Below the pieces are notes generated by a model. It ran no database searches, was not told the DNA's origin, and saw nothing but the letters and a program-made list of their open reading frames with translations. Positions 1 to 18,425 of a stretch of DNA of 19,865 nt are shown one piece after another; within the stretch, counting starts at the first letter, position 1; each line of letters starts with the position of its first letter. The stretch lies in the UHGV virus genome UHGV-1448388. The stretch is one strand, 5' to 3'. The DNA is from a virus. The position numbers and the translations under genes were made by a program.

Positions 1-719
1 ATGACATTGTCATATACAAACGTTTTATCCTGCGTCCAGGCGTTGTACCACGGTGTATCTGTAATTTTAAATAACTCTCCCTGGATAAAATCTTCAGAAA
101 CATAAAAAAGAGGCTGACCCGGTATTCTCTCAAATAAAAAACGAGCATTTTTAAATCGACTGACATCTGGAAGAGTTGATACTTTAAAAGTAAGCCCTCG
201 CCCATCTATCTTTTCACCACCTGTTGCAACAGAAAGTAATTCTGATAGAGCTGATGTATCATCATGAACACCATCACCAATAGCCCCCCAACCTCTTACA
301 TCATAACTGTCTCTCCATCTTGCTATCTGAAGTTTTGGGTATTTATTCGCTCCATCTGTGTCTTCTAATTGCTGCCGTAACTGATCAGGATCATACTTCA
401 GCACATTAGGAAAATAGAACTGCTGCGCACCATACGCATCATAAACAGCCATAGAATGGCCTTGCACGGTAACGAATTTGGCAATCTGTCCGTTATATAC
501 CGGATATCCAGCAGCGTTAATGATTATTGGTTGCGAAACAGGAACGTGAGAACCGTCTTCATTCTCCACATAGACCTGAATCTGGTTTTCTGTATTTACA
601 GGATCAGTGTCAATTTTACCGATATAAATTTTGCCATTGGCTACGGCTTTAAAAGAACGCGCCATAGTGAAGAGTTGCGAAGGCATCGATACGATCACAT
701 TGGCTGTAATGTCTGTCAT
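1..719 (-). CDS. Tailspike protein, N-terminal 239 codons (P22 gp9-type head-binding domain plus the start of a beta-helix receptor-binding domain); 3' end lies beyond the window
   Basis: Reverse-complement translation from ATG at 719..717 gives [11 protein letters not shown]...[19 protein letters not shown]...[15 protein letters not shown]...NVLKYDPDQ, which matches the P22-family tailspike head-binding domain as I recall it. Downstream residues carry a [15 protein letters not shown] motif typical of pectate-lyase-like beta-helix domains. GGAG Shine-Dalgarno 9 nt upstream. The ORF track missed it because it is truncated by the window edge. Confidence 0.85.
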
Positions 720-775
720 TTAATTTGCTCCAGATACAAGGAATCGCCGAAGCATGGCTACGGTGAATTTTGGGC

Positions 776-801
776 ATAAAAAAACCCAGCCGAAGCTGGG
801 T
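776..801 (-). terminator. Rho-independent terminator between ant and the tailspike gene
   Basis: Minus strand reads a CCCAGC-TTCG-GCTGGG hairpin (plus 785-800) followed directly by a run of 7-8 T (plus A-run 777-784), 19 nt downstream of the ant stop codon. Confidence 0.55.
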
Positions 802-819
802 CGTTGCGTTGGTTATCTA

Positions 820-1743
820 TCAGTAGTTATGTACTGAAGGAGGTAATTCTTTATTCTTAAGTCTCATCCATGCGGAAAGATTCGTTGGTCCGTCTGGCTC
901 ATTAATATCAACATCTCGTGTATGGTTGATTAAAACATCTCTCGCCATTCCGATAACATACGAGAATTCATGACCGTAGTCGTAGCATCTGCCGGAATAG
1001 TTCGATTGAATTTGTTTTAGCGCCTGATACAGTTCGCGGAATAATGCCTGTGAGCGGTTGGCATAATCCCATAGCCATACAAGGCTGTTTACTTCTTTTG
1101 CAGAAAGCTCGTTGGTTTTCTTCTCTTGTTTGCCAATGAACTCACCTTCAAGTGGAACTCGAGCTGCAAGTGATAGTGCTTCGGTAAACTGCTCCTCACT
1201 GATTTCTTTGTACGAACATCCAAAATGGGATTTCAGTGACGACCACATGGTGATCATCGCCTTAGCCTGTTTTTCTTTTGGCAGAGACTGACCGCGACTC
1301 ATGACGAGTTGTTTAATGGCTTCCTGCTGTTCAGTGGTGATTTTACCCTGCAACGCCTTTTTAGCTTTGCGTGGGTTAACTACATGGCCTTTAGTCCAGT
1401 ACTCGTAGAGCACATCGTCACACTCTTCCTGATACTGGATTACCTTGTCGCGGATTTCAGGGCGGACTTTGTTAGGACTGATGCTGTTCAACCAAGCTGC
1501 CAATTTTCGTAAAGCCATACAAATCATGGCTTGCACCCCACCGGCAGAAGGTATGGTGATTTCCACCATACCATTCGAGAATCGTTGAGAAATCTTCTTA
1601 TGTTGAGATTTCCAGTCTAGCCCCATTCCCTCAACGATAGGTTTCATTGGGGTATACGGTTCGCCGTTGTGATTGACAACATAAAGCTCTGCGCCGTGGA
1701 ATGGTACATTGATAGTAGATACTGCTGTTGCTATACTTTTCAT
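820..1743 (-). CDS. ant: Antirepressor Ant (AntA/AntB-type N-terminal domain)
   Basis: 307-aa ORF. N-terminal motif HNGEPYTPMKPIVEGMGLDWKSQ...IQYQEECDDVLYEYWTKG is characteristic of the phage antirepressor family. Position downstream of arc and upstream of the tailspike matches the P22 immI layout. AGGAA Shine-Dalgarno upstream. Confidence 0.7.
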   Translation of the reverse strand: MKSIATAVSTINVPFHGAELYVVNHNGEPYTPMKPIVEGMGLDWKSQHKKISQRFSNGMVEITIPSAGGVQAMICMALRKLAAWLNSISPNKVRPEIRDKVIQYQEECDDVLYEYWTKGHVVNPRKAKKALQGKITTEQQEAIKQLVMSRGQSLPKEKQAKAMITMWSSLKSHFGCSYKEISEEQFTEALSLAARVPLEGEFIGKQEKKTNELSAKEVNSLVWLWDYANRSQALFRELYQALKQIQSNYSGRCYDYGHEFSYVIGMARDVLINHTRDVDINEPDGPTNLSAWMRLKNKELPPSVHNY

Positions 1744-1806
1744 GTCGTTAATTCCTATGCGTGGTTTTACGATACCGAAGCCCTGACTGTTCCCGCAGTT
1801 GGGGCT

Positions 1807-2010
1807 TCAACTTTCTGCTCTATCAGTTATATCTTTCCCTTCGTATACTTCACCTATATTGCTAATGCTGGCAGAACATCCAAGATGCTTGTATCTTATG
1901 ATGTCCAACACGCAGTCACTACACAGCATCCGACCTGTTTCTTTAGAGTAAATGTATGTTTGATCAGCGTCTGATTCGCTAATGCCGCAGAAACAACATT
2001 CTTTACTCAT
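1807..2010 (-). CDS. Small Cys4 zinc-ribbon-like protein (67 aa), hypothetical
   Basis: ORF with CxxC (C5, C8) and CxxC (C30, C33) pairs. Strong GAGGGGG Shine-Dalgarno about 7 nt upstream. Its ATG overlaps the arc stop codon (ATGA), implying translational coupling. Confidence 0.45.
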   Translation of the reverse strand: MSKECCFCGISESDADQTYIYSKETGRMLCSDCVLDIIRYKHLGCSASISNIGEVYEGKDITDRAES

Positions 2011-2147
2011 ACCATCACCCCCTCTCTCTTCAAGCTGTCCAGCACCCGTTTAATTACTTCTGCGCTAAACGATCGACACTCTTCCTTTGCTTTCTCTTCA
2101 AGGATTTTTTCTAACTTCTCTGGCATACGCAGTGTTTTTACCTTCAT
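2007..2147 (-). CDS. arc: Arc-like ribbon-helix-helix repressor (46 aa from the internal ATG)
   Basis: MKVKTLRMPEKLEKILEEKAKEECRSFSAEVIKRVLDSLKREG has the beta-strand plus two-helix RHH layout and a size similar to P22 Arc. GGAGGA Shine-Dalgarno 5-6 nt upstream of the ATG at 2147. The longer 68-aa ORF-track version would run through the promoter region. Confidence 0.6.
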   Translation of the reverse strand: MKVKTLRMPEKLEKILEEKAKEECRSFSAEVIKRVLDSLKREGVMV

Positions 2148-2252
2148 TGCATCCTCCGCTGTATGTGGTACGCATACATAGTATTTAGGTACGCATTGAT
2201 AGTCAATAGACACCTACATATCCTGTGGTAAAAAATTATTCAGGGTGTGCCG
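2148..2252. promoter_or_regulatory. Divergent immI-type promoter/operator region (candidate back-to-back sigma70 promoters with repeat elements)
   Basis: Plus-strand candidate: -35 TTGATA (2196-2201), 17-bp spacer, -10 TATCCT (2219-2224). Minus-strand candidate: -35 TTGACT (plus 2201-2206), 17-bp spacer, -10 TACTAT (plus 2178-2183). The two -35 hexamers lie within the palindrome ATTGA-tag-TCAAT (2195-2207). Direct repeats GGTACGCAT at 2167-2175 and 2188-2196 (21 bp apart), and TGTGGTA at 2164-2170 and 2224-2230. Confidence 0.45.
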
Positions 2253-2510
2253 ATGTCTGATCGTAAGTACAAAAACCCTCAAGTGAATCTGAGGCTTCCT
2301 GTAGAGATAAAGGAACGTCTTATTGAACTGGCTGAGGCTAATTCTCGTTCATTAAATGCTGAGATGGTCGCTGCACTTGAAGCATGGACCGAAAAAAATA
2401 AACACATTCAAGCACTAGACCTTGCAACTATAGCATCACGATTGATAGATCTTGAACATGATGTTGAGAAGTTGAAATGCATGTATGGCAACAATAAAGA
2501 CGAAAGTTAG
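2253..2510 (+). CDS. Ribbon-helix-helix DNA-binding protein (Mnt/Arc family paralogue, 85 aa)
   Basis: ATG at 2253; the ORF-track start is a GTG two codons upstream. NPQVNLRLPVEIKERLIELAEANSRSLNAEMVAALEAW fits the RHH beta-strand/helix/helix pattern. AGGGTG Shine-Dalgarno-like sequence upstream. Confidence 0.6.
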   Translation: MSDRKYKNPQVNLRLPVEIKERLIELAEANSRSLNAEMVAALEAWTEKNKHIQALDLATIASRLIDLEHDVEKLKCMYGNNKDES

Positions 2511-2533
2511 AGATACTAACTTGGAGTGATGGC

Positions 2534-2782
2534 ATGGCTAGAGATGATCCGCACTTTAACTTCCGTATGCCTTTGGAAGTAAGAGAAAAATTGAAATTAA
2601 GAGCCGAGGCTAACGGAAGGTCAATGAACTCTGAGTTATTACAAATCGTTCAGGATGCGCTATCAAAACCATCACCGATTGCAGGTTACCGTGACGAAGC
2701 AGAACGTATGGCTGATCAGCAAGCAGAAATTGTTAAGAAGATGGTGTTTGAAACCCTGAAAAAAATGTACGAGACCAGATAG
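2534..2782 (+). CDS. mnt: Mnt repressor (ribbon-helix-helix)
   Basis: 82-aa product MARDDPHFNFRMPLEVREKLKLRAEANGRSMNSELLQIVQDALSKPSP... closely matches P22 Mnt as I recall it. GGAG Shine-Dalgarno 7 nt upstream. Transcribed opposite to arc-ant, as in P22 immI. Confidence 0.85.
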   Translation: MARDDPHFNFRMPLEVREKLKLRAEANGRSMNSELLQIVQDALSKPSPIAGYRDEAERMADQQAEIVKKMVFETLKKMYETR

Positions 2783-2824
2783 GTCAATGTTTGTTCGTTG
2801 ATATAAAATAACAAGGTATACATT

Positions 2825-3424
2825 GTGATTGAGATAGGCGTTATGGCCATCCTGAATCAAGAGCCAGGAAAAATTGAAAACGTTTTTTCTGACATATCAA
2901 CATCTATCGAGCGTTCAATTTCAGACTTTGATCGCAGTCATAGCGGCTCTTTGTCTAAAAAACAGGCTTCTGAAGCTCTTAGCAAGATCTACTGCGTTAT
3001 GTCACCTGTAGAGGAAGTTTGCAAAAAGTACATTACATTCATTGACATATTAAGTAATGGTACAGAAGAAGATATTTCCTCACTTAATATTCAACATGAC
3101 GATGTAGATATGTTGAACGATCAGATATCTAAGCTTGATTATGGTATCGCGAAACTGTTGTATACCTTCTTCATCGCTGAGAACAGCGATGCGTGGAAGC
3201 CCCATATGTCAACTCTTACAACAATGAAAAACCACTCAATCAATACTTTTATAGAATACAAAAGGCTAACAATGGGGCTTGTGACGCTAGCAATGCAGCA
3301 CATACCACTATCATATGCTGAACCTGAAGAGTTCACTGAAGAAGAGTTGGCTTCCTTCAAGAAATCAGTTGAAGATTCACATAAAAGATTTGGCATGGAA
3401 GCACCAAAATGGAAAACCGCATAA
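2825..3424 (+). CDS. Hypothetical acidic protein (199 aa; possibly 193 aa from ATG 2843), first gene of an AT-rich accessory cassette
   Basis: Intact ORF in AT-rich DNA. Start is GTG at 2825 (AAGG 8 nt upstream) or ATG at 2843. The 3' end overlaps the next gene by 16 nt. Acidic composition; no family I recognise. Confidence 0.5.
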   Translation: MIEIGVMAILNQEPGKIENVFSDISTSIERSISDFDRSHSGSLSKKQASEALSKIYCVMSPVEEVCKKYITFIDILSNGTEEDISSLNIQHDDVDMLNDQISKLDYGIAKLLYTFFIAENSDAWKPHMSTLTTMKNHSINTFIEYKRLTMGLVTLAMQHIPLSYAEPEEFTEEELASFKKSVEDSHKRFGMEAPKWKTA

Positions 3425-3828
3425 GCATTGTTGTAGATGCAGCGGCTGGACCATTAGAACAATACTTTGCGAAGGCTCTTGCAAACTACAAAAACAGAGG
3501 CACCGTTTCAGCTTATCTTGGTAAGATTGGTGGGTTTGAGAGAAACCATCACGCCGTCTTATCGGGAATTTACAAGTCGCACATCAGGATCCCTGGAGTA
3601 GATGATCCTTGGTTAAGAACAACGCCAATACATCGTAGAGTTAGCGATAACTTTTTGATATTTGCGGTACACAACACATATCCAATTCATATCCAGATCA
3701 TTGCTATCATTAAACCTGATGGTCATGAGAAGGTAAAAAAACTATTGCCAGCCATCATTGATATAACTGAAAAAAGATTCCAATCTCTAAATGAGAGGGA
3801 GCTTAACTCGTTGATTTCATACAAATAA
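3409..3828 (+). CDS. YafO-family toxin-like protein (139 aa)
   Basis: Motifs ANYKNRG, FERNHHAVL and NFLIFAVHN...IHIQIIAIIKPDGHEK...EKRF align with E. coli YafO (FISYKRDG, FERVAHIHL, AHLVYCQG...AWLLIAILKPEPHK...AEAFRMRF) as I recall it. Basic protein whose start overlaps the upstream acidic ORF. Confidence 0.55.
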   Translation: MENRISIVVDAAAGPLEQYFAKALANYKNRGTVSAYLGKIGGFERNHHAVLSGIYKSHIRIPGVDDPWLRTTPIHRRVSDNFLIFAVHNTYPIHIQIIAIIKPDGHEKVKKLLPAIIDITEKRFQSLNERELNSLISYK

Positions 3829-3850
3829 AATATCAACTAAGGGGGTTGGT

Positions 3851-4174
3851 GTGTATACAACAGTTATCGCGATAGCTATCGCACTCATTGTGGTTCAGTA
3901 CCAACTGGCATCTTTAAAACAAAAGATATCTGACCTCAAGACTGAGAACGAAGCACTTAAAAACTCAATAAAAGATGAGAAGAACAAACTATCATTCACT
4001 ATATCTGATATTGAGCAATCCATTGAAATTATTGAGAATAATATTAACAGATTAAAAAAAGAAGATATTCATGAAATCAATGACAATATCAAGGATTTGA
4101 AATCTTGGCTTAGGAATGTAGGACAAATCGCCACATCAACACGAGATAAGCTCAATACATCCATGGATGATTAA
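3851..4174 (+). CDS. Small membrane-anchored coiled-coil protein (107 aa), hypothetical
   Basis: GTG start with strong AAGGGGG Shine-Dalgarno 5 nt upstream. N-terminal hydrophobic helix YTTVIAIAIALIVVQYQLA, followed by a K/E-rich heptad-like coiled-coil. Very AT-rich. Its stop codon abuts the gp16 stop codon. Confidence 0.5.
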   Translation: MYTTVIAIAIALIVVQYQLASLKQKISDLKTENEALKNSIKDEKNKLSFTISDIEQSIEIIENNINRLKKEDIHEINDNIKDLKSWLRNVGQIATSTRDKLNTSMDD

Positions 4175-6334
4175 TTACTCCTGTGCCATTCCGCTTAGCG
4201 ACGCTACAATGCCAGCCCTCGCTAAGCGATTGAACTCTTCGTTTCCAACTGCATCGCGTATTGCTTTTACGGCGGCTTTATTTGCCATAAATCTGCGTTC
4301 CGCCGCCGCTAATGCTTCTTTACTTCCGCCAGCTCTTACTGCTTTCGTGGCTTCCTGAACTGCTTTCTCTATCGCATACCGACCACTACGTGTGGTGGCA
4401 ATTTTAGATACAGCACCTTTTAGCCCGGCGCCAACTAAAGCACCTGCGGCAGCGCCTGCAATGCCCCCTCCTGCTCCACCAACAATGGCACCTGATGTTG
4501 AATTGGCAATTGCATTTAACACTGTTGATGTGACGTTGGATAAACCGGCATCCAGATCGCGTAGTACATTGGCAGTTCTCCCTGTTCTTTCAATATACTG
4601 CTGAGGTTTCACTGCTGCTCTTGCAAGAGTGCCATATGCATCTGCAATTCTTCCAAGCTCTGAGGAATATCGGCTAATGGCTTTTACATTTTGTGGAGTG
4701 AGTATCTCTGCGATATGGTTAATTCCTGCTGCATCAGCTTTACCACCACGTACACCATGCGAGATAGCATCTTGCAACATTGATGATATAGCAGGAACAC
4801 GCTCTGATTCTGGCAGCGCGCGGATCATAGAATGGAATCCAGCAGGACCATTAAGACCTTTAGCTGACGATGATTGAAGGGATTTTACTCCATTCGTAAT
4901 CAGTGCATCTGTTGCCAAATCACGCCCGAAAACAGACTCTGCACTCTCTTGTGCTGATAACCTCGCTTTAGACAGATCATTAGCTTTTTGCCAGTCATCA
5001 AGAAATCCGCCGTTTTCCGCCATTGTGCGCATATCATCAGTAATTGCCCGGCGTATTTCCCCTGCTCTCCTTGCCGCATTTGCCTCTCCGCTACGCTTAT
5101 ATTTTTGCTCCGCATCAGCAAATTTCGCTCTCCATGCTTTCATGCCGTCAAATGTTACTCCACCTTGATTGTTTGCCTGAACAAACTGTTTCATTTCAGG
5201 AGTAAGCGGTATGCCGGCAGATCGCTCTGCCTGAATAACGGCATTACCATTTAGCATTCTTGCTTTTTGATTTGGCATTGTTGACCGCACGTCATCCCAT
5301 GCCGCGCGCTCGGCATCCTTCATCTGATCAAGATTTTGAAGAATCCTTTGTTTTATAGCCGCACTTTTTTCTGATGCCGTTCCAGATGCGGCCCCAAATT
5401 CATCAAGGTTTCGACTTAACTTTGATGATATTTCGTTAAATGCTGCCTGATGGGCGTCCTGAACAATTCCTGGTGTTGATGCCAATGCGCCTTCGGCTTG
5501 TGCAATTCCACGACTTCCAGATCGCATTCCTGGTGTTAATGCGTTTATATCAATTCCAGCAGACTCAGCCGCTTTTGCTACATCTTCGGACACATTAGCG
5601 GCCTGACTGGCAATTGACTGACGCCCAGCACCTGACTTTGCCATCCTAGAAACATCATTAGCAGAATTCAGTGCTGCACCACCAAGAGCCTGTGAAACCC
5701 TTGGCGCAATAACGCGCCCGACACCTGAAAGAACGCCTTGAGCACCAATATTGATACCACCGTTAATGGCAGCATTTTGTGCAAAGTCGCCCTCCTGATT
5801 TGCAGCATCAGCAAGAGAACCTGCAATCATGTTTCCGGCGGAACCGATATCTCCAGCGAGCTTTGCTGTCGCTCCAGCAGCTTTTGCCGCTGTGCCAATT
5901 GGCAGGAGATACCCACCAATTGTTTCACCGGCTTGCGCGTAAGGGTCTGTCGGTCGCTCGGCAGGGCGATAAACATCATCCAAAACCTTGGGGCCGCCAA
6001 GCCCCTGGCTGATTGCATTAATCAGACTTGCGCCACCCTGCAATACGTCAAATGGTATGTTTACCAGACCACGACCAGCCTGTTCTGCAATTTGCCCTGC
6101 ACTTTGACCACCTGTGAGCCAATCACCAGCTTGTTGCATCAATGATGGTTCTTCTTTCTGCTGCTGAGGCGGAGGGTATGCTGCATAAAACTGATCTCTT
6201 GCTTCAGCCCATTTGTCACCAGCCTTAGGGGCAACAACCTCATCAAAATATTGCGCTTGAGCCTGTGCTTTCTGTTCTTCAGTTAACGCCTGATACTGTG
6301 GAGAAGCGATAACATCTTTCCATGCTTTAGCCAT
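4175..6334 (-). CDS. DNA ejection (injection) protein, P22 gp16-like
   Basis: 719-aa ORF in the gp16 position after gp20. Ala/Gly-rich with low-complexity segments. Start overlaps the gp20 stop (TAATG). Confidence 0.7.
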
Positions 6335-7683
6335 TAATCACCCCATAAAGACGAGAAACCGGACTTATTGCTGTCGCTTCCTGATTTTCGCTCACTAACA
6401 TATGTGTCATAACCTGATGAACTATATCCCATTGATTCAGCCTCCCTTGCTGCAACCTTTTGAAATACAGAATATTGCGATCGGATTTCAGATAACTGTT
6501 TTCTGACGACCTCTTCAGGCTGTGTTATATCGAGTTTCGCGATCAGGTTTTCCAGTTTTTGGCCTTCAGCATTGGAGAGGCTCCCCATACCTCGCATAAT
6601 CTGCACGTTCTGGACAAACGCACCCGACTTTAATTCTTCTATCGCATTACGGTTTGCAAGCCCTTCAGCACTTGTGAAGCCATCTATATTTCTTCCTTCG
6701 AAGCGACCGATACCTTCAAGCTCCTTCTTACCAAGCAAAGAATCTATTTTCTCTATCCCTCGCTCACCAGTAATCAACGCATTGTTGTAATTATTGTTGC
6801 CATCAAGCCATCTCTTAGCCTGAGACATTCTGGCTGACGTTGCAGCTTTACCGGTTAGAGGATCAATTCCCGTCGCTGCTATCTGTGAGTTAAGAGACAA
6901 AACATCCATATCCTGAAGTTGTCCTGCTCTTTCAAGGGCCGCCTGTGACTGCTTAAACACATACTTGTCGTGATTCAGTCTTGCCATTTGAGCCTTATAG
7001 GAAAGATCCTGCCCCCTAATAGCCCTCGCATTCGTCATGTCATTATTGCGAATGGTTTCGTTAATTCTTTGCTGCTCCTGCTGGCGACCAACCATCTTGT
7101 CCTGAACAGCAAACGCCTTTTCTGGTCCAAGCGCACCGAGAGACATAGTAGTCAGCATGTGTGATAGCTGCTCTGGATTCTGGATACCTGTCTGAATCAT
7201 CCAATCAGCATTCGCCCCCACGCGATTTAACCTGTCCTTGTTGTCAGTAATGAATTTACTGTAGGCTTCCGGTCCCTGAGAAAGAGCGACGTTAGCCCTC
7301 ATGGCTAAATCGCCCATATCGTTGCGTTGCTGCTCATTAAGACCGGAAAATGCCTGTTGTGCCTGCGCAACAAACGCTGGATTTTCCTTGGCAAACTTAA
7401 ATAGTCCCGATGGATCACCAGAAGCCCATGCATCAGCATGAACCTTATTGAACGCATTAATCGCTTTCTGTTGCTGGTCCTGCTTATAAATATCAGCAAC
7501 TCCAGCCAGACCACGTAACGCGGTCAGACCAACGTTATTTGCACCTGATTGAGCCAGTTCATTGTTTTCGCGGATCAGACCAAGCGTTGCGTTAATGTCG
7601 CTTGCCTTTGGCGCATTCTCATTTTGCGCACCAATTCCAGCCAGAAAACCACCAGAATTAATACCCTGTTGCCACGTAGCCAT
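6334..7683 (-). CDS. DNA ejection protein, P22 gp20-like
   Basis: 449-aa ORF; position and size agree with P22 gp20 between gp7 and gp16. Confidence 0.7.
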
Positions 7684-7693
7684 TGATTACCCC

Positions 7694-8386
7694 TTAAAAC
7701 AACGAGCCAAGCAGACCAAGACCAGCACCGATACCAGCACCCCACGGAGTTGATAGCTCGAGAGCACTGGCTATGCCACCACCCAAAAGCGCACCGGATG
7801 CAGCACCACTAACACCCTGCCGCAATGCTGACGGTCGGTTGGCGTTTGCCGCTGCAAGAGCCGCGCTTTGCTGTGAAATCTGACTCATGTTGTTGGCATA
7901 TGTTTGCCCGGCGTTTGCCTGCCCCTGAAGAGCGCCAAGACCGATATTTGCCAGGTTGTTGTAATTGTTCATTTGTCCAGATAGCCATTGCTGACCAAGC
8001 GTTGGTGCGATTGTTGCTAACTGATTACTGGTTGCGGTGGAACCCAATCCACCTGTTGCTTCCGCTGCCGCCAGACTCTGATAGCGAGCCTGACCTGCAA
8101 GGTCTTTATACTGCTGAGAGTTGTAATACTGGTTAAGTGCCTGACCTTGCCCTTCCAGAGACGATAAGTTCTCAAGGCTGCCGACATACTTCCCAGCCAG
8201 AGGAGTAAACAGCTTCAGGTTGTTCATGATGGTGTTGAACTGCTGATTTTGCAGGTCTGCGGCATACTTCTGAGCTTCTGCTGCATACTTTGCGCTTTTA
8301 TCAGAACTGCCACCTTTCCCGCCTTTTTCAGGGTAATAAGGTTCCTCGCCGCGCAGTTTTCTGCCCAGCGTAAATGCATATAACAT
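7694..8386 (-). CDS. DNA ejection protein, P22 gp7-like
   Basis: 230-aa ORF (P22 gp7 is about 229 aa). Gly-rich hydrophobic C-terminus. Position after gp14. Confidence 0.7.
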   Translation of the reverse strand: MLYAFTLGRKLRGEEPYYPEKGGKGGSSDKSAKYAAEAQKYAADLQNQQFNTIMNNLKLFTPLAGKYVGSLENLSSLEGQGQALNQYYNSQQYKDLAGQARYQSLAAAEATGGLGSTATSNQLATIAPTLGQQWLSGQMNNYNNLANIGLGALQGQANAGQTYANNMSQISQQSAALAAANANRPSALRQGVSGAASGALLGGGIASALELSTPWGAGIGAGLGLLGSLF

Positions 8387-8388
8387 GG

Positions 8389-8844
8389 CTATCTCCCGTG
8401 ATTCAGGAAGTCGATTAGTTCTTCGCGTGTGGCGCTGTAAAACGTCACGTCATCCACGCCTTTGAAGTATTTCTTGATGGTTCCTACACGCTTAAGGCCA
8501 ATCATTGCGCAGTACATCTGCCCGTGGCGGAATTTGCGTGCAGCAAATGATGTGACGCACTGAACGGTGGTGTTGGTCAGAATGTATCGCCAGAACGCCA
8601 GCCCTATTTCCTTGCTGAAGCCGCGAATCTCTGGCAGGTACATGGCGTGGCAATCGAATGTAAGCGGCTGAATCTCCTGATAGTAAACAATGCCGCCAAA
8701 CTGACCGTGCACGTTCACCTCAAAGTAACGGCAATCAGGTTTGTAGTCGTATCCATCACCGTTGTTGCTCCCGGCGATGATGTCAGGGTGATTTCCTACT
8801 GCTTCGATCAGGTCGATGTTTCGCGTTGGTTTGAATGTAATCAT
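8389..8844 (-). CDS. P22 gp14-like head assembly / ejection-associated protein
   Basis: 151-aa ORF in the gp14 position; start overlaps the gp26 stop (ATGA). Confidence 0.6.
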   Translation of the reverse strand: MITFKPTRNIDLIEAVGNHPDIIAGSNNGDGYDYKPDCRYFEVNVHGQFGGIVYYQEIQPLTFDCHAMYLPEIRGFSKEIGLAFWRYILTNTTVQCVTSFAARKFRHGQMYCAMIGLKRVGTIKKYFKGVDDVTFYSATREELIDFLNHGR

Positions 8845-9545
8845 CAGTCAATCAGCCCATGTAATCTAAGTGCTGTTTCAAGCGCCAGAATACGCTGCCG
8901 CGCCTGCTCCAAACCTGTAGCGATAGCTGCGACTTCGGATTGTGTGTACGTAGTGCCGACCGTGTATGACTGGTTAGCGTTGAATGAGCCAAGAAGTGGT
9001 GTGCCTGTGGCCGCTGTCCATCCGGTCTGCCTTGCTCCAACGACCTGAATTCCATCAACTGAATATGATGTTTTTACATCCAGCGGTGACGCAAGAGACT
9101 GCGATTCTGTTACGGTTTTCGATACGTAATCACTCTTAATGTCAGATATATCGCTTTCTACGCCATCCAGTCTTTGGTCAACAGTGACCAGATGCGCCTG
9201 AATATCGATAACCTCATCCAGCAAGTAATCAACATCGCTACGCAGTACAACTATCTTCCCTTCGGCGGTTGTTAACCTGACCTCAAGGAGATTTATCGCT
9301 TTTGTGTTTGCGGTGATTCTTGCATCGTGGTCAGCCAGTTCGACATCCTGTTCATCGTTTTTCACCTGAGCATCGTAAGCGCCCTGACCAGCCTGATTTG
9401 CTTTCCCGGCAATTGCGCCGACATCAGCCCCCTGATTAATGACATACAGCAGGTAAGACTGGCTGAATATATTGCGTGGAAGGATTGATGTATCGAGCCG
9501 CGTCGCCTGCACAATAACAGGGGTGTTGAGATTCGAATCAGCCAT
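8844..9545 (-). CDS. Tail needle protein, P22 gp26-like (233 aa)
   Basis: From the internal [80 protein letters not shown]... matches the P22 gp26 N-terminus as I recall it. Start overlaps the gp10 stop (TAATG). The 267-aa ORF-track version is an N-terminal over-extension. Confidence 0.85.
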
Positions 9546-10963
9546 TACTCGATCCTTATCTGGCAGCCAGACAGAGTGACAGGTGACTTCGTGATAACGC
9601 GCAATTTGAAGCCGACATTTTTCCTGATGCGCCCGACTCGCTTCCACAAAACGCGTTTGTCGTAAACAAACGGTTCATTCTGCTCAATCATCTGCTCACG
9701 ACCGTAATTGATGCCGTCAGTGGTTGCAGAGAGAAAAAGGCGGTCGGCGTACTGCGCAACGCCAGTTGAAGATTCAACTTCAAGGTCGAAAACTCTGGCG
9801 TTATCCGCTTTGAACAGAGGAGTAAACAGCAGATGCTCCTGTTGCTTGTCGTACTGGCTGCTGATGTCGAATTGCAATTTCCCGGTCACGGACTCCAGCT
9901 TATCGCCGCACGTTATCTGATTGCCTTCGTAAATGAAGTCGATAGCGCGGTACACATCGTCATACAGACCTGTTTTCAGTACACACCATTGCGGAGCATT
10001 GGCGCTTGAAGATGCGTCGTATACGAGGACATGGCGCGGAAGATGGATAATCAGCAGCTCATGCGCATCAAATCGCAGAGACTCCATCACACCATCAGCC
10101 AGTTCATCAGCAGTGTAGGAGCGAAGAATTTTCTCAATGCTCGCGCTGGCGATTGGTGACACCTGCCCGGAACCGATGATGTATACAGACGGCGCACCTG
10201 TTGCCGGATTGCTGATGAACGCATAGGAATCAGCGAATGGCGTTTTGCAATAGGTTCCGGCGATGCCTTTTTGCACCATCAGTGATGGCTGTGCGACATA
10301 CAAAGCAGCACCAACGGTGGTTGCGCCAGTCAGGGAGAAATATTCAATAGTCGATGAACCAAAGCAGACGATGAAGTCTCGCCATGTCCCGATACCGATG
10401 ATGCCGTCCGGCTGCGATTCTGCGCGATATTGTGCACTGTATCGGTCAGGGTGCGATTCGTCTTCAAGGTCAGTGATAAACCATGAATCAGTTCCGTCTT
10501 TTGACCACGCATAACGCCCACGTAAGCGAGTAATGTCGCGAACTGAACCTAACTCATACTGCGTGAATCCACTGTCTGTAGGCCAGTTTGAGACGGTTTT
10601 AACCGTGCCATCATAACGATACTCGACCAGTTGACCATTAACGCCTACAGCCTGTGATGTTCGACCATGCGCCATTGATACGCGACCACTTCCGGCGACG
10701 TCACCGACTTCGCTTTCTCCTTTGTACAGCTTGCCGCCACACACGCGATAAACAGCACTCTGCGCCATGTTGTACTCGACGCCGCGCGATATACCATTCA
10801 CATCAGAACGTTTGGCAATGCCCGGGAATGAGCGAAGATATCCGCTGCTGTTCAGGATTTCTTTGGGCGTAGCCAACATATTCACTGGCAGATAGTCGAT
10901 ATAGTCGGCGTTTCGAAAGTCTTTGCCGACACCTTTCATAAGCGGAAGTTGCTGAATCGGCAT
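9545..10963 (-). CDS. Tail accessory (hub) protein, P22 gp10-like
   Basis: 472-aa ORF, the same length as P22 gp10, between gp4 and gp26. Confidence 0.8.
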
Positions 10964-10972
10964 TTATTCACC

Positions 10973-11434
10973 TCACGTACTCGGATCATCTTTCTCGATG
11001 TAAAACCGATTCCACGTAAACGCGCTTTTGTTACCACTACCGCGAGGCATGTCATTTCGCCGCTCAAGTGGTGGTATTTTGGTTAAAGCGATACAGATTG
11101 TCTGATATGCACTGTCAGCAGCGGTAAGGAGAGCGTCTGACGGCTGAATGACGTTATCCATGCACACTTGCACAGCGAGTTTCAAAGCGACGCCATCATT
11201 TGCCCATGCAGGGATACCTGAATCATCGTCAGGTAACGGCATGATGCCGTTTTCTGTATCAGCAAACTGATATCCAAGCTCGATACCTTTAGCCTGCCAT
11301 GCTGCCATCATGTCTTCGAGGTCATTAATGGCATCTTCAATTGCCTGAGGGTCAGCATCTGTCAACGTGGCATTGGAATACAGCCCGGCTTTTCGTAAAG
11401 CCTTTAGAACGAGATCACCCTTCGTTTTCGCCAT
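10973..11434 (-). CDS. Head-to-tail adaptor / tail accessory protein, P22 gp4-like
   Basis: 153-aa ORF immediately downstream of the coat region and upstream of gp10. GGAAG Shine-Dalgarno upstream. Confidence 0.7.
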   Translation of the reverse strand: MAKTKGDLVLKALRKAGLYSNATLTDADPQAIEDAINDLEDMMAAWQAKGIELGYQFADTENGIMPLPDDDSGIPAWANDGVALKLAVQVCMDNVIQPSDALLTAADSAYQTICIALTKIPPLERRNDMPRGSGNKSAFTWNRFYIEKDDPST

Positions 11435-11603
11435 CTTCTTCCGCCTTAGCCACTTTTTGCTTCGTTGCGGTTTCTTCAGGAGTTTTTACCCAACCTTTTT
11501 TCAGGTGAGATTTAACTTCTTCGTCATCAACAATGACGTAATCGACAGCAAACTGACCACAGGTGATCATGTTGCCAGGCTTATAGAGCATTGTTCGTGC
11601 CAT
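11415..11603 (-). CDS. Small hypothetical protein (62 aa) between the coat and gp4 genes
   Basis: ATG at 11603 preceded by a GGGAGAAGA Shine-Dalgarno, lying just downstream of the coat terminator hairpin. The ORF-track version starts at a TTG inside the hairpin and is less plausible. Overlaps the gp4 start by 20 nt. Confidence 0.4.
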   Translation of the reverse strand: MARTMLYKPGNMITCGQFAVDYVIVDDEEVKSHLKKGWVKTPEETATKQKVAKAEEDGENEG

Positions 11604-11614
11604 TGTCTTCTCCC

Positions 11615-11638
11615 AATAAAAATGGGGCCGAAGCCCCA
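11615..11638 (-). terminator. Rho-independent terminator/attenuator immediately downstream of the coat gene
   Basis: Minus strand reads GGGGC-TTCG-GCCCC followed by ATTTTTATT, beginning 8 nt after the coat stop codon. Confidence 0.55.
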
Positions 11639-11644
11639 CCAAAA

Positions 11645-12898
11645 TTACTGCCCGGCAATAACGATGCCCGTATATTCAGGAACAAGTACAGAGCAACCGT
11701 ACAGAGTGGTGAAACGAGCAGTGGTTACGCCTTTGATGTGGTCGAAGGCATAAGACATGATCAGCGTAGCGCCCTGCTCGGTGGTTGCTGTCATTACCTG
11801 TGGACCCTGACCTGTCGGGAATGCCAGTTTGCCGTACATCAGCTCAACAGAACCATCAGCCCAGAAGAGGTTAGCAGGTGCTGCGTTCTTGTTGAGAATG
11901 GTGATTGCTGCTGATTCTGCCGGTTTGGCATCGACGTTTGCATATGGACGACTCGCAACATCAGTATTTTCAACAGGGAGAATCTTTGGAGAAATTGTTA
12001 CGGTAGTTCCGCTAACAGCCAGAACACGGAATACCTGCGGTTGACCGGTGGTATCTTTTGTGATCTGGTGTACGGAATTCACACCGGCAATGGTGAACGC
12101 ATCACCAACCTGCAAGCCAGATGCAGATACCGTAATAGTCCCCTGTCGGTTATCAACTGGCATACCATTTGAATCTTTCGCTTCAACCTTGTGTTCAGGT
12201 TGGCCTGATACTGTCAAGGATTCAGTGCTTCCTTTCGGTAATCGACCAGAAATATCGGTCTTGTAGCTATCGAAGGACGCAACCGGAGGGATTTGCGCTT
12301 TTTCGTATGCTGTCAGGGTTGCGCCCTGAGCATAGGCACGGTGACCAAGCTCGCCAGCAAGGTCTTTGTAGTTGAAGGGGTTCCAGAAAGAGCGACGGTT
12401 GATACCCTGAGGTACACCAATCGCCGTCATGGTGGCATCAATACCTGCCGCACAGTTCCACAAATCACGGCCCTGTGTACCTGCGGTTGAGTCAGCCATC
12501 GTGATCACGTTAGTAGCACGCTGCGTGACCATGGAAATCAGGTCAGAGTCAATCTGTGCAGCAAGGCGCATACCTGCGGCGCGACCAGCTTCAGTTTTAT
12601 GTTCCGGATCACGCATTTCACGCGCATCCAGAGTGTACAGAATGTTTTTCGGCTCCTTGAACACTGAAGGAACAAGGCGCTGAACCAGTGCTGTTGGCGT
12701 TTTGCTGCTGAGGTCGAGGCCTTCCTCAATATTCATGTGGTAATGCTGCGGACGATACAGAACATCACCTGCTCGCTGCATTGCTGTATCACCGGGACGG
12801 AGTTTTTTAGCGTTACGGGAAACTACGCAGGCGGCCTCAAAGCCTTCAACGTAGTTTTCGAACATGATTTCAAGGTCTTTTGCTAATTGGTTAGCCAT
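11645..12898 (-). CDS. Major capsid (coat) protein, P22 gp5-like (HK97 fold)
   Basis: 417-aa ORF. C-terminal segments (YANVD, NLFWADGSVELM, terminal ...GIVIAGQ) parallel P22 coat protein as I recall it. Follows the scaffold gene. Confidence 0.9.
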   Translation of the reverse strand: MANQLAKDLEIMFENYVEGFEAACVVSRNAKKLRPGDTAMQRAGDVLYRPQHYHMNIEEGLDLSSKTPTALVQRLVPSVFKEPKNILYTLDAREMRDPEHKTEAGRAAGMRLAAQIDSDLISMVTQRATNVITMADSTAGTQGRDLWNCAAGIDATMTAIGVPQGINRRSFWNPFNYKDLAGELGHRAYAQGATLTAYEKAQIPPVASFDSYKTDISGRLPKGSTESLTVSGQPEHKVEAKDSNGMPVDNRQGTITVSASGLQVGDAFTIAGVNSVHQITKDTTGQPQVFRVLAVSGTTVTISPKILPVENTDVASRPYANVDAKPAESAAITILNKNAAPANLFWADGSVELMYGKLAFPTGQGPQVMTATTEQGATLIMSYAFDHIKGVTTARFTTLYGCSVLVPEYTGIVIAGQ

Positions 12899-12916
12899 GC
12901 TTAATGCTCCAATAGG

Positions 12917-13810
12917 TTATTTTTTTGCCTTTTTAGCGGCGAAATACGGCGTCCAGTCACCAGTTTCCAGCGCCTTGGCTTTCAATTTGTCGAGGTTGTT
13001 GATTACTGCGCCGTTGCTCCCCTTAACCGTCGGGGTTGTGGCTGCCGTGGTTTTTGCTTTTGGCATGATTCTGGCCTTCGATTCGATACGTTCCAGCAGA
13101 CGACCAATTGCTACGGGGTTGGTAGCTTCTGCCAGTTGCTTGCGCAGTTCAGCGTTGCGACCAAGCGCCAGAACAACGATTTCCGGCTTCTCTGACTCAA
13201 ACAGGATCGCGTTTTGTGTCTCGATGGGGATTTCCTCGAGTACGGCCTGCTCAGCTTCCTGATAGCCAGGAACTTTGAGAGCCTTAACACGTTGCTGATA
13301 TTTGGATAATCGCTCTTGATAGGCAGCCTGAAGCTCCTGCTCCTTCTGCTTGCGAGCCATCTCCTGTTGCTGGTACTTGCCATTATCCTCTGCCCACTTA
13401 GCCATGCGTTGCTGGTAGATTTCTTCATCGAAACCGATGTCCTCATCATCCAGTTTTGGCATTCGCGGTGGTTGAGTGATTACCGGCTGCTGCTCGACGG
13501 GTTTCTGAGACTGACGCATCAGCTCTTTCAGCTCGCGGTCTTTCTCTTTAATCGTCTTGCGCAGGTGTTTTACCAGTCCATGCTCAGCGCCATCTTCGCT
13601 GGTTGGCGAATCCAGCTTTTCGTCACCAAAGTAGAATTCCTGTTCTGATTCGTCGTCATCAGTTTCAGTAGCCTCCTCTGCATCATTGCCTGAGGACTCA
13701 CTGCCATCTTCTGTTTCGACTTTTTCAGCCAGTTCGACATCATCAGGAATCTGCTCTGACGCGTCGGTTTCGATTTCAACTTCTGGTGTGTTTTCTGCCA
13801 TCTGGTCCAT
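12917..13810 (-). CDS. Scaffolding protein, P22 gp8-like
   Basis: 297-aa ORF between portal and coat. Highly acidic N-terminus, helical charged middle region and basic C-terminal tail. Confidence 0.75.
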   Translation of the reverse strand: MDQMAENTPEVEIETDASEQIPDDVELAEKVETEDGSESSGNDAEEATETDDDESEQEFYFGDEKLDSPTSEDGAEHGLVKHLRKTIKEKDRELKELMRQSQKPVEQQPVITQPPRMPKLDDEDIGFDEEIYQQRMAKWAEDNGKYQQQEMARKQKEQELQAAYQERLSKYQQRVKALKVPGYQEAEQAVLEEIPIETQNAILFESEKPEIVVLALGRNAELRKQLAEATNPVAIGRLLERIESKARIMPKAKTTAATTPTVKGSNGAVINNLDKLKAKALETGDWTPYFAAKKAKK

Positions 13811-13900
13811 TTGTTACCCCTGTTTACTCGATGTTCAGCCCATCGGAAGGCAATAGGGTGCCAGGCCTCATAAAGACAGCCATTGCACGTTATGGGTTAA

Positions 13901-16099
13901 TTACTGCTGTGGTTGTTGCTGAGTTGATTTTTGCAGGATGCTGCTGATGTCCATGCGCTGCGCATGGCCCTGTGCCTGACTTTTCAGGACAAGCTCTGCA
14001 TCAGCACGGGCATTGTCTCCTTGCTGTTGCTGGAACTGTCCGAGCAGTTTCAGAGCCTCGCGGATATCAGATTTCTGCTGGCTATCGGCAGATGCGAGGA
14101 TTTTCACAACATTTGCCGCTGCAACCTGAGCATCAGTCTGTGCCTGGAATGCTTTAACCTGAATGGCTGCCTGCTCGTTCTGCGCTTTCTGCAATTCAGC
14201 CTGACCAGCAAGAAGCTGACCTTGCGCAGCAACCATAGCCGGATCTGGCTGACTGGCCTGTTGTTGTTTCGCCTGCTCAACCATCTGCTGTTCTTCTGGC
14301 GTTCTCGGCTTGATAACTCCAGACAGAAGCAACTGATTGCGGTTGTATTCTTTAAGGTCGTCCATCCCTTCGCCGTCCATATTGTCGAGGATCATCGACG
14401 ATACAAGGTCGTGTTTCGGCGTTCCGGGCGGGATAAGTGCCAGCATGGAAAGTAACGACTTAACCGTTGCGTCACGGCGAGTAGCGAACGACTGACCGAC
14501 ATCGACAGTCACTTCATAGTTACCCTGCGAAAGGTCGTTAAGCGCGATAACCTGCCCTGTCTGACGGTCAACCACTTCACCAGTCATCAGCGCCACGTCA
14601 TCGCTGCCGTCCTCATTAACGATACGCATCGGCGTATCGCTGCCATAGACTTCACGAGCCATAGAAAGCCACACAACGCCAGCGCGACGCATGGATTTAG
14701 CCATGTTGTCCATGTAGATATAGGACTGCGTATCCATCCGGTTAAAGATGCTATCAACGGTATCGGTAGCAACGTTGCTCGGCATGTTCTCAAGCTGCGA
14801 CGCACCTGTAATTTGCTGAATAGCCGTTCCGGTGTACTGCAATAGCCCGGCAAGAGCTGGAGGCATTTGTGTCGGAGGCGTATAACTGCTGACCTGAGCC
14901 TGCGCAGTAATATCTCCGTTTTTGTTTTTCAGACTGACCATCGGCAGGAACGCCGGGCGCTTTTTGTTGCGCTCCGCCCAATGAGTAGCGAGAGGACCAG
15001 GAATCATGTCAACATCAACTACAGGAATGCCATCACCGCCAGCCTGAGTAGCGTTATCTGCAATCATGGAAACCATCAGGTTCTCAAGACGCTGTGCATC
15101 CATCGCTTTTGCTGCGTGGCCTTCGATTCGTTCCTGATTATCAACAAATGAGCGACGTCCATATACCGGGATGAGAGGAATATGTTCGCCCGGAATACGC
15201 TTCGGTTCTTCCAGCCATTCAGCGCCAGACAGAAGGCCGCAATAAACGCGGCGTTTCTTCACCGTTCGCTCGCCAATCAGTTCGAATGCACCATCGGTCA
15301 GCTCGTCGACAATATCTTTGATTTGCTCTTCATCATAGATTGCCGTTTCTCCGCTAACAGGGTTGCGCCATGCCGTGAGCTTCACCTTCTCTATGCGAAC
15401 TTCGTAGTAGCGCCCAACATAGATGGCATCTGGCGTTGACCAGTCATATTGAGTGCCAGTCTCATCACGAGAAAGGCCTGCCGCGATGGAATCAGGGTAT
15501 TCAGCCTCGAACGCTTTAGGCGTCATGGAGAACATTTCCATAGCCCACATAGCATCAGAACGGTCATATTGCTTGCTGTCCTGATCGAAGAAGACGCATG
15601 TCGCTGGGTCGTAAACAGGAAGAAGGCTGATGCGTCGCTGCTCGTTACTTGGGTCCATTTCATCTTCGTAATCGGCACACATGCGGAAACAACCGAATCC
15701 GCCCGTTACAGCATCATCAAATGCGTTATCACACGCTTCGCCACCTGATGTTTCCTGATAGTCAGCGCGGAATTTGCCGTTCATCTTTTTGGCTAACGCT
15801 TCCGATGCCTTGTCATCCTTCGGCCTGAATTTAACGCTGATGCGATTCTGTCGATACTCGCCAATGATGCGATCACATTCACGGGCAATCTTATTCAGTT
15901 CAAAGCGCGGGTAATGCTCAAACCTGCCTTCATCAAATGAGTAACCAGCGTTTGTGCTGCCTTCCCACTGTGCGCCGGATACCCGGACGAAACGTTGAGC
16001 CTCAATAATCTGCTCACGCATATCCTGCGTTGCTGACCAGGCATTATCAAAGTTGCACAGCACCTTGCGATGCCAGTCAGTCATCTTTTTTTCTGCCAT
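13901..16099 (-). CDS. Portal protein, P22 gp1-like
   Basis: 732-aa ORF directly downstream of the large terminase. Long Gln/Ala-rich C-terminal helical segment typical of the P22 portal barrel. Confidence 0.9.
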   Translation of the reverse strand: MAEKKMTDWHRKVLCNFDNAWSATQDMREQIIEAQRFVRVSGAQWEGSTNAGYSFDEGRFEHYPRFELNKIARECDRIIGEYRQNRISVKFRPKDDKASEALAKKMNGKFRADYQETSGGEACDNAFDDAVTGGFGCFRMCADYEDEMDPSNEQRRISLLPVYDPATCVFFDQDSKQYDRSDAMWAMEMFSMTPKAFEAEYPDSIAAGLSRDETGTQYDWSTPDAIYVGRYYEVRIEKVKLTAWRNPVSGETAIYDEEQIKDIVDELTDGAFELIGERTVKKRRVYCGLLSGAEWLEEPKRIPGEHIPLIPVYGRRSFVDNQERIEGHAAKAMDAQRLENLMVSMIADNATQAGGDGIPVVDVDMIPGPLATHWAERNKKRPAFLPMVSLKNKNGDITAQAQVSSYTPPTQMPPALAGLLQYTGTAIQQITGASQLENMPSNVATDTVDSIFNRMDTQSYIYMDNMAKSMRRAGVVWLSMAREVYGSDTPMRIVNEDGSDDVALMTGEVVDRQTGQVIALNDLSQGNYEVTVDVGQSFATRRDATVKSLLSMLALIPPGTPKHDLVSSMILDNMDGEGMDDLKEYNRNQLLLSGVIKPRTPEEQQMVEQAKQQQASQPDPAMVAAQGQLLAGQAELQKAQNEQAAIQVKAFQAQTDAQVAAANVVKILASADSQQKSDIREALKLLGQFQQQQGDNARADAELVLKSQAQGHAQRMDISSILQKSTQQQPQQ

Positions 16100-16100
16100 A

Positions 16101-17516
16101 TCAACCTACACCACAAGGAATTGAGTAACTGGAATAGTCGGGTTGCGCAGCCGACTCCGGGCAATGCATACACATCATCAGCGCATCAGCCAGGTTAGGA
16201 GATGGGATACCGAGCTTCTGCTTCATTTCGACCTTAGTCATAAGCTCCAGTTTCCCGTTATTATTGAATTTGCGCTGAATCTGCGTCAGTTCTGCAAACA
16301 GTTTCTCCAGCATCTTCTCGCCTATCGCTTCTTTGTCGAAGCTCAGCATGTCGTCGGGGTCTGCATACTCACCGTGGACAACCGCCCGATATGTCAGATA
16401 CAGCCTGTCAGCCAGCGCGTAATAGAATTGCGCTCGCTTATTGCGGAATACATCGCCAATAGTGCGAACGTTGTCACCCTGTACGACTTCATCAGCCCAT
16501 GCTCCGGCCTGATACGGAGCATCTTCATCGAATGGCGATTCGCTGCCCTTGAACATCGTGGCGGTAATTTTCTTGCCGGAGAATGCTTCCGTTGTCTGTC
16601 TGCGTAGCCCTGCACCGACACCATCGCCATCCCACAGGTAATGGTCAGCGCCGTCTTCAATCGCCAGCGAAGTAGCCCAGTCAGCACCCTCGTTGATGTC
16701 CATCAGCAGACCTTCGGCAATGCGCTTAACTACCGAACCGTGACGCGATGCATAACCTTTAGCATCTGGCCCTGTATCTGATGGGTCATGCGCAGAGACA
16801 ACAGCGCCTTTCGCTTTCCATCCGAGTTTCTTGTGCGCATCGGTTGCGGCTTCAAGCCATTCACGTTTGATGATTGCCATATCACTTGCGCTTACTGGCT
16901 CACCAAGCCAGATGTGACGATACAGTGTCGGGTTTCTGCGTTTACACTCTTCCATCTCCAGACGGAGAACTTCAGGAAAGTGCGGGTTGTCGGTGTAGTT
17001 CACCGTCAGCAGACAAATATCATCGGGAGGGTTTACTACGAATCGCTGATAGGTATCGTCGAGGATGTTTTTCGGGTTGAAGCTCACCCATATTTCGGAA
17101 AATGGCTTGCGGATGGTTGGTATCAGGATATCCCATGATTCCTTCGTTACCGCTTCCGCTTCCTCCACCCAGCAGATATCAATGCCTTCGAGCGATTTAA
17201 TCTTCGTCGGGTTGTTTTTGATGCCGTAGAACATGAACTCAGCATTCGTCCCGAGATGACGAATCATGGAACGCTGAATTTCAAACTCAGCCGTATACCC
17301 TTCACGCTCTATGGTGTCTTCAAGCAGCCGGATTACCGAATCGCTGATACTGTTTTGCAGTTCACGAGCGCAGAGAATACGCACTGGCTGCCGACGCGCC
17401 GCTTCAACAAGCAGTCTCGCAATTGCCCATGATTTACCGCTACCTCGACCGCCTTTGGCGACTTTGTAGCGATGCGCCTCAATGAACGGTTCAAAGATAG
17501 GATTAATCGAGGTCAT
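16101..17516 (-). CDS. terL: Terminase large subunit
   Basis: 471-aa ORF with a Walker A-like KGGRGSGKS motif near the N-terminus. Start overlaps the terS stop (ATGA). Confidence 0.9.
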   Translation of the reverse strand: MTSINPIFEPFIEAHRYKVAKGGRGSGKSWAIARLLVEAARRQPVRILCARELQNSISDSVIRLLEDTIEREGYTAEFEIQRSMIRHLGTNAEFMFYGIKNNPTKIKSLEGIDICWVEEAEAVTKESWDILIPTIRKPFSEIWVSFNPKNILDDTYQRFVVNPPDDICLLTVNYTDNPHFPEVLRLEMEECKRRNPTLYRHIWLGEPVSASDMAIIKREWLEAATDAHKKLGWKAKGAVVSAHDPSDTGPDAKGYASRHGSVVKRIAEGLLMDINEGADWATSLAIEDGADHYLWDGDGVGAGLRRQTTEAFSGKKITATMFKGSESPFDEDAPYQAGAWADEVVQGDNVRTIGDVFRNKRAQFYYALADRLYLTYRAVVHGEYADPDDMLSFDKEAIGEKMLEKLFAELTQIQRKFNNNGKLELMTKVEMKQKLGIPSPNLADALMMCMHCPESAAQPDYSSYSIPCGVG

Positions 17517-17953
17517 TTTCCGAATAGAGTACTCATCGGTGATGTTTCAATCTGGATTGCGCCGCCGTCTTTGCCTGTTAGCTCGTGATCAACCTTGTCG
17601 CGCCATTTATCCTTCTGTCGGTTCTTAAGCCAGAAGATGGCAGCTGTTGTATCAGGCGGGTAATACTTCTCAAGAGGAGTTTCGACAATTCTGTTTTCAA
17701 TAACACGAATATCGATGTCTGGAGCCACGAAGCCCATAGCGCGTTGATAAAGACGGTCACTAACTTCTGCATCAGCGACGGCCTTACCCTTTTTTATGGA
17801 CTCCGAAAACTCAGGATAATCAAGCTTCCACTTGTTAATAGTTGACTCACTGACTTCGAAGAAATCAGCAAGCTCTGCATCGGTGTAGCCCAGCAAGCAC
17901 AGTTTGCGTGCCTGTTCGGCATACGCCTCTTGATACTTTGTTGGGCGCGCCAT
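17513..17953 (-). CDS. terS: Terminase small subunit
   Basis: 146-aa ORF upstream of and overlapping terL. Helix-turn-helix-like N-terminal region (LGYTDAELADFFEVSESTINKWK) and a C-terminal GKDGGAIQIETSPMSTLFGK tail. GGAG Shine-Dalgarno upstream. Confidence 0.8.
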   Translation of the reverse strand: MARPTKYQEAYAEQARKLCLLGYTDAELADFFEVSESTINKWKLDYPEFSESIKKGKAVADAEVSDRLYQRAMGFVAPDIDIRVIENRIVETPLEKYYPPDTTAAIFWLKNRQKDKWRDKVDHELTGKDGGAIQIETSPMSTLFGK

Positions 17954-17955
17954 GT

Positions 17956-18198: not shown

Positions 18199-18425
18199 TG
18201 TTGGCTCCGTTTATCCGTTAAAAGGGATATCAGTTAAGTTATCCCGTGTAGGGTATAAGCCATTGTCGAGACCACTCATTGAATGGTCTCTGCAATAACC
18301 GATGTCTTTCCATCAGTCCGCCACCACAAAGAATCTTTTTTGCCATAAGGCAGGAGGTTCATCTTTCAGTGGCTGCCAGTGTTATTTCCCCACTTTCTGG
18401 CTTGGGTTGTTTCGCTGTACTGCCG

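Follow-up and report, generated by a model that had tools for sequence, protein, structure and literature searches.

At the left end of the 19,865-nucleotide stretch of UHGV virus genome UHGV-1448388 that was analyzed here (hereafter the window), positions 719 to 1 on the minus strand hold an uninterrupted frame of 239 codons, the translation of which begins [30 protein letters not shown] and the start codon of which is the ATG at 719-717. This frame is the 5' part of a tailspike gene, and the window edge cuts the gene at codon 239, leaving the first quarter of a 981-aa protein inside the window. A sequence-only reading of the region had described features of this tailspike that are confirmed below, while leaving the truncation at codon 239 unmentioned. 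The features of the locus are as follows:

1..719 (-): 5' part of the tailspike gene (siaK1 of phage CUS-3, codons 1-239 of 981); open frame, 100% identical to siaK1 of CP000711.1
381..719 (-): P22-type head-binding (virion-attachment) domain, residues 1-113, by PF09008 and the solved P22 and Sf6 domains
365..386 (-): main recombination joint, codons ~112-118, at DPDQ and just past it, by DNA matches, identity profile, and protein alignment
285..380 (-): residues 114-145, forming the neck/linker of the endosialidase module and corresponding to K1F gp17 214-245 and phi92 gp143 44-75
240..298 (-): nested second breakpoint zone, ~residues 141-160, at which the Gally-type and 20AR0300-type tailspikes part from CUS-3
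84..284 (-): endosialidase N-terminal domain, residues 146-212, by PF12218 and alignment to K1F endoNF chains
1..83 (-): start of the catalytic six-bladed beta-propeller, 27 residues (213-239), by PF12217; the remainder lies beyond the window
728..731 (-): Shine-Dalgarno sequence GGAG, 8 nt 5' of the ATG, read off the sequence
775..802 (-): terminator-like hairpin and T-run of the intrinsic type, with an 8-bp stem including 5 GC pairs, then TTTTTAT
820..1743 (-): ant, the P22-type antirepressor gene and upstream neighbor (P22_AR_N, E = 1e-45; P22_AR_C, E = 5e-29; CUS-3 annotation)

The hairpin lies between ant and the tailspike gene, within the "bsq1 boundary sequence" of the CUS-3 record, and in phage HK620 a tANT is annotated at the corresponding position. 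The presence of ant fixes the P22-like gene order of ant followed by tailspike, and the wider gene context is likewise P22-like, i.e., ant, mnt/arc, genes 16, 20, 7, 14, 26, 10, and 4, coat, scaffold, portal, and terminase. The tailspike gene is the last late gene of a P22-like virion-assembly cluster and comes after ant, with the head-binding domain encoded at its 5' end, and the tailspikes P22 gp9, Sf6 gp14, and HK620 gp9 are encoded at the same place, downstream of ant/immI. Base composition was also weighed as an indicator of foreign origin and set aside: the head-binding part has 42.5% GC and residues 114-239 have 39.2%, against 47.7% for the whole window, and since both parts of the tailspike are low, GC is uninformative about the joint.

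Two further loci lie upstream. Two tandem Arc/Mnt-family repressor genes (2247-2782, plus strand), of which only the second has the Mnt C-terminal domain, show the immI-type control region upstream of ant to be duplicated. The UTI89 RefSeq record includes a small, divergent arc gene, corresponding to window 2007-2147 on the minus strand. Opposite in strand to the late genes and flanked by gene 16 and mnt, a YafO-family toxin gene (3409-3828, plus strand; Pfam E = 3e-11) overlaps the end of a 199-aa ORF (2825-3424) for which no Pfam match was found, and this pair may be a toxin-antitoxin moron.

When the phage collection was searched with megablast, window 1-860 proved to be 100% identical to Enterobacteria phage CUS-3 (CP000711.1), and a base-by-base comparison extended the correspondence to window 1-19340 (CUS-3 4753-24092), with the two sequences one SNP apart. 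The prophage of E. coli UTI89 has the same near-identity to the window as CUS-3. The sole SNP relative to CUS-3 in these 19.3 kb is at position 12802, where residue 33 of the coat protein is L in the window and F in CUS-3. The last 525 nt of the window (19341-19865) depart from both CUS-3 and UTI89 and represent another allele of the Rz/lysis region, with a 159-aa Rz encoded at 19314-19793. No near-identical full-length match was found for 19341-19865, the best full-coverage matches being 96.5% identical among 5426 E. coli genomes and 93% identical among phages. This different lysis allele indicates that the window comes from a mosaic relative and not from the deposited CUS-3 or UTI89 elements themselves; the window thus derives from a CUS-3-type prophage, a close mosaic relative of the deposited one.

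Within positions 1-719 the window and CUS-3 do not differ at all (the coat-protein SNP and the Rz/lysis allele lie elsewhere), the 100% nucleotide identity continues through the upstream region, and the neighboring genes and their order are the same. In the CUS-3 record the gene is siaK1 (ABQ88383.1; 2946 nt, 981 aa), an "endosialidase tailspike protein" whose endo-alpha-sialidase activity is given with evidence code IDA (Stummeyer et al. 2006, PMID 16689790, as cited there). That the tailspike gene is, at 100% identity, a known and named phage gene had escaped the sequence-only reading. Throughout this work, identity, domain architecture, joint position, and catalytic-residue conservation were read from sequence, and enzymatic activity and virion location were taken from the literature and from record annotation.

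Residues 1-113 of the tailspike match the Pfam Head_binding family over its entire length (PF09008, profile positions 1-113 of 113; 223 bits vs a cut-off of 24; E = 6.4e-67) and can be aligned, with no gap, to the head-binding domain structures of P22 (PDB entries 1lkt and 2vky) and Sf6 (7sg7), ending at the DPDQ hinge. For P22 and Sf6 it is known from structures that this domain, as a trimer, attaches the spike to the tail hub of the virion. Identity over the domain is 84/112 (75%) to P22 and 102/112 (91%) to Sf6; taken with HK620 gp9, the three tailspikes P22 gp9, Sf6 gp14, and HK620 gp9 are 75-91% identical here and have the same DPDQ hinge. With VLKYDPDQ occupying residues 106-113, these matches, which are no product of chance, uphold the earlier proposal that the first ~113 residues are of the P22 head-binding type and end at that sequence. 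None of the alignments to P22, Sf6, and HK620 continues past the hinge at Q113, and similarity is gone after about residue 118-127. The receptor-binding parts of these three proteins are right-handed beta-helix O-antigen hydrolases, unlike that of CUS-3. A match of a different kind was to a bacterial "exopolysaccharide biosynthesis protein" (PDB entry 6tgf), residues 48-158 of which match head-binding residues 8-118 (E = 6e-8), which suggests a tailspike-derived bacterial enzyme.

The same boundary is visible at the DNA level. The HK620 DNA match stops at window position 373, and identity to HK620 is 70% over gene nt 1-30, 87-100% over nt 31-330, 67% over nt 331-360, and no better than random from there on. 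Identity to phages K1F and phi92 runs the opposite way, at random level before ~nt 340 and at 50-80% after it, the HK620 similarity falling away exactly where the K1F/phi92 similarity sets in (~nt 340). A match to the 719 nt was found in 1177 of 5426 complete E. coli genomes. When 60 of these hits, evenly spread over the E. coli sample, were inspected, DNA similarity ended at gene nt 334-355 in 43; another 8 covered the full query, 5 ended at nt 422-467, and 2 comprised the endosialidase part only. With 43 of the 60 spread hits ending at this one place, the DPDQ hinge is a genuine recombination joint at the population level, and it maps to codons 113-116. A recombination joint after VLKYDPDQ, between a P22-type domain and a non-P22 receptor-binding part, had been proposed from the sequence alone, and both the E. 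coli hits and the switch in identity from HK620 to K1F agree with it. The P22 chains cover residues 1-127 only, and no colinear alignment with the P22 tailspike throughout was seen. The chimera itself is already known: it is a named, biochemically characterized gene and a standard example of tailspike module exchange. A review describes the N-terminal domain as common to CUS-3, HK620, Sf6, and P22 and CUS-3's catalytic domain as a K1F-type endosialidase (PMC5380687).

Residues 114-239, the remainder of the frame inside the window, are covered in full by the endosialidases of K1F, phi92, K1G, and many others in tblastn searches (61-70% identity), and this full-query coverage places the beginning of the endosialidase module directly after DPDQ, with L114 equivalent to K1F L214 and phi92 L44. 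The first stretch, residues 114-145, is identical at 17/32 positions to K1F and at 21/32 to phi92 and forms the neck of the endosialidase module; it is no novel linker. It is followed by a complete End_N_terminal domain (PF12218, positions 1-67 of 67; 129 bits vs a cut-off of 26.3; E = 4.1e-38), to which the K1F endoNF chains 1v0e and 3gvl align from their own first residues. The last 27 residues match the start of the beta-propeller family (PF12217, positions 1-27 of 367 only; 42 bits vs a cut-off of 24; E = 5.6e-11), and 23 of them are identical to K1F 313-339. Over residues 114-239 as a whole, identity to K1F endoNF is 63.5%. The basis for assigning the fold was 60-64% identity to chains with crystal structures; a single-sequence AlphaFold2 model of residues 114-239 had a mean pLDDT of 33 and was unusable as a fold test. 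A protein search with the same residues returned 10 matches, all 73-216 aa long and several named as partial by their source, which were useless for alignment.

Features past residue 239 were read from the sequence-identical CUS-3 record, their codons lying outside the window. Pfam searches with the full-length CUS-3 protein gave the following domains:

Residues 1-113: Head_binding (E = 5.2e-66)
Residues 146-212: End_N_terminal (E = 2.9e-37)
Residues 213-662: End_beta_propel, PF12217 (775 bits; E = 1e-233)
Residues 324-406: End_beta_barrel, PF12195, inserted (157 bits)
Residues 663-817: End_tail_spike, PF12219, the stalk (261 bits)
Residues 818-878: Peptidase_S74, PF13884, the chaperone (41 bits)

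In the phage endosialidase family, alpha-2,8-polysialic acid is bound and cleaved by the propeller and stalk, which results in digestion through the K1 capsule, and the C-terminal domain chaperones trimer folding and is cut off at a conserved serine. Residues 145-817 of the full-length CUS-3 protein are colinear with the K1F endoNF chains 1v0e and 3gvl (1047-1048 bits), phi92 endoN92 (PDB entry 4hiz) covers residues 145-814 (913 bits), and the K1F stalk and chaperone structure 3gw6 matches residues 698-979. K1F gp17 (endoNF) is colinear from its residues 214-1064 with CUS-3 residues 114-981 and has the same order of Pfam domains, whereas its particle-binding N-terminus is unlike the 113-residue P22 head-binding domain of CUS-3. 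The phi92 protein (gp143, endoN92) shares the endosialidase module from the neck onward, at 59% overall identity to CUS-3, but its N-terminal adaptor is just 43 residues long and the phage is a myovirus. In the part encoded in the window, CUS-3 residue n corresponds to K1F residue n+100 in the full-length alignment. The catalytic residues of K1F endoNF are H350, R549, E581, R596, and R647 (PMC12632334), and all five are kept in CUS-3 siaK1, as H250, R456, E488, R503, and R554, outside the window. The chaperone cleavage serine is also kept (CUS-3 S818, equivalent to K1F S911, likewise outside the window), while K410 of K1F is replaced by G310 in CUS-3.

Codons past 239 lie beyond the window edge, and the propeller, stalk, and chaperone are therefore seen in identical-sequence records only. 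In a mosaic relative such as this, the tailspike gene could in principle differ or be disrupted at its far 3' end. One reading would therefore be that the gene belongs to a decayed prophage remnant and is truncated, frameshifted, or IS-disrupted beyond the window, such that the chimera is present but non-functional. In keeping with this, the right end of the window belongs to a mosaic element that was not found intact in the searched collections, and insertions do occur in related genes. In phage phiv205-1 (L005, 844-6239), transposase ORFs inserted within the head-binding domain split a homologous endosialidase tailspike gene into a 71-aa (216-nt) ORF, named "bifunctional tail protein", and a 917-aa remainder which keeps Head_binding positions 69-113 only, and in another E. 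coli genome (H199) an IS1 interrupts a related tailspike. Against it, the 19.3 kb of virion-assembly genes are intact and one SNP apart from those of the inducible CUS-3, and the full siaK1 gene is present at 99% identity or more in 132 E. coli records; at least 80% of the gene is present in 181 of the 5426 complete E. coli genomes. We regard decay as very unlikely, and the tailspike copy in UHGV-1448388 probably continues intact beyond codon 239.

The sequence-only reading had taken the partner of the head-binding domain for a pectate-lyase-like beta-helix depolymerase, on account of the motif [15 protein letters not shown]. The motif is indeed present, at residues 143-157 (window 249-293), but it straddles the start of the End_N_terminal domain and does not mark a beta-helix lyase here. 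Such motifs occur at the N-termini of many right-handed beta-helix proteins, and the beta-helix inference was therefore reasonable, though wrong. The segment [18 protein letters not shown] weakly matches beta-helix N-terminal caps, namely those of the GH55 glucanase 5m5z (8e-5), PfbA 3zpp (0.013), AlgE4 2pyg (0.13), CBA120 TSP 4oj5 (0.6), and phi92 gp150 6e0v (1); PF12708 matches residues 141-163 (E = 0.05), and the top PHROG match is named "tail spike protein with colanic acid degradation activity". The PF12708 match, however, reaches 13.8 bits vs a cut-off of 27 and spans 23 residues only. The PHROG label was discounted as having been inherited from other members, the Pfam and PDB matches being endosialidase-specific. 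Residues 146-239 instead match the endosialidase N-terminal and beta-propeller families (E = 4e-38 and 6e-11), and no pectate-lyase or beta-helix family was found by Pfam in the full-length CUS-3 protein. With the identical full-length gene encoding a six-domain endosialidase that has a beta-propeller catalytic domain, and with the beta-helix tailspikes of P22, Sf6, and HK620 aligning to residues 1-127 only, a head-binding domain fused to a pectate-lyase-like right-handed beta-helix depolymerase of new O-antigen or capsule specificity is exceedingly improbable. In the CUS-3 tailspike the motif opens the endosialidase N-terminal domain, and the beta-propeller comes next.

A second, nested joint lies within the module. 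Over residues 1-159 the tailspike of phage Gally (799 aa; L003, 3048-5447) shares 90% identity with CUS-3, beyond which the two are unrelated, and a prophage tailspike of E. coli 20AR0300 (707 aa; L009, 3001-5124) is 92% identical over residues 1-158 and then unrelated; in neither was a Pfam domain found past the head-binding domain. An 843-aa tail spike of known structure (PDB entry 9vvr) has the K1F-type neck and motif at residues 214-261, behind a K1F-type N-terminus, and diverges afterward. The 5 of 60 spread E. coli hits that end at gene nt 422-467 fall in the same zone. A further host of the endosialidase module, which here stands behind a non-P22 N-terminus, is a prophage of E. coli SCU-125 (L010, 3303-6422), whose DNA shares 98.5% identity with CUS-3 beginning at gene nt 522; its 1039-aa endosialidase has Pfam matches that start with End_N_terminal at residue 205, and no Head_binding domain was found by Pfam before that residue.

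Together with the SCU-125 module, the patterns in Gally, 20AR0300, and 9vvr are those of an adaptor used in common, with a second breakpoint near residue 155. We tentatively raise the possibility, short of calling it probable, that the neck and the strand-helix motif "VRGWGA.GDG..D.T.A" (residues 114 to ~158) are a portable adaptor in their own right. At least three different particle-binding N-termini come before this segment (the P22 head-binding domain and those of K1F gp17 and phi92 gp143), and the receptor-binding parts that come after it are of at least three unrelated kinds (the endosialidase, the 799-aa spike of the Gally type, and the 707-aa spike of the 20AR0300 type). If the proposal is right, tailspike specificity in CUS-3-like phages would be swapped at two nested joints, and the cap-like motif would be a homology patch that lets the beta-propeller and other catalytic modules replace one another. 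No description of the second joint was found in the literature examined, among which the primary CUS-3 papers were not included.

Window 719..1 is thus almost certainly the start of an endosialidase tailspike gene, specifying the N-terminal quarter of the protein, in a P22-like prophage of E. coli K1 that is of the CUS-3 type. The head-binding domain (residues 1-113) would anchor the trimeric spike to the tail machine of a P22-like virion, other genes of which occupy the rest of the window, and the DPDQ hinge would join this domain to a complete phage endosialidase (GH58) module. The predicted order of the module is the neck (114-145), the N-terminal domain (146-212), the beta-propeller with its inserted beta-barrel (213-662), and the stalk (663-817), with a C-terminal intramolecular chaperone that would be released at Ser818. 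Going by the literature and the record annotation, the enzyme would bind and cleave alpha-2,8-polysialic acid, i.e., the K1 capsule, and capsule cleavage would let the phage tunnel to the cell surface and would make it K1-specific.

Just outside the window, the same prophage has neuO, a phase-variable capsule O-acetyltransferase gene that has been associated with virulence and with resistance to other K1 phages. For the tailspike, the correct label is endosialidase and not beta-helix lyase, and for the window it is CUS-3-type prophage. The chimera is a standard illustration of how host range is changed by swapping receptor-binding modules behind a conserved virion-attachment domain, and through the fusion a temperate P22-like phage gains specificity for the polysialic-acid K1 capsule found in neonatal-meningitis and uropathogenic E. 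coli.
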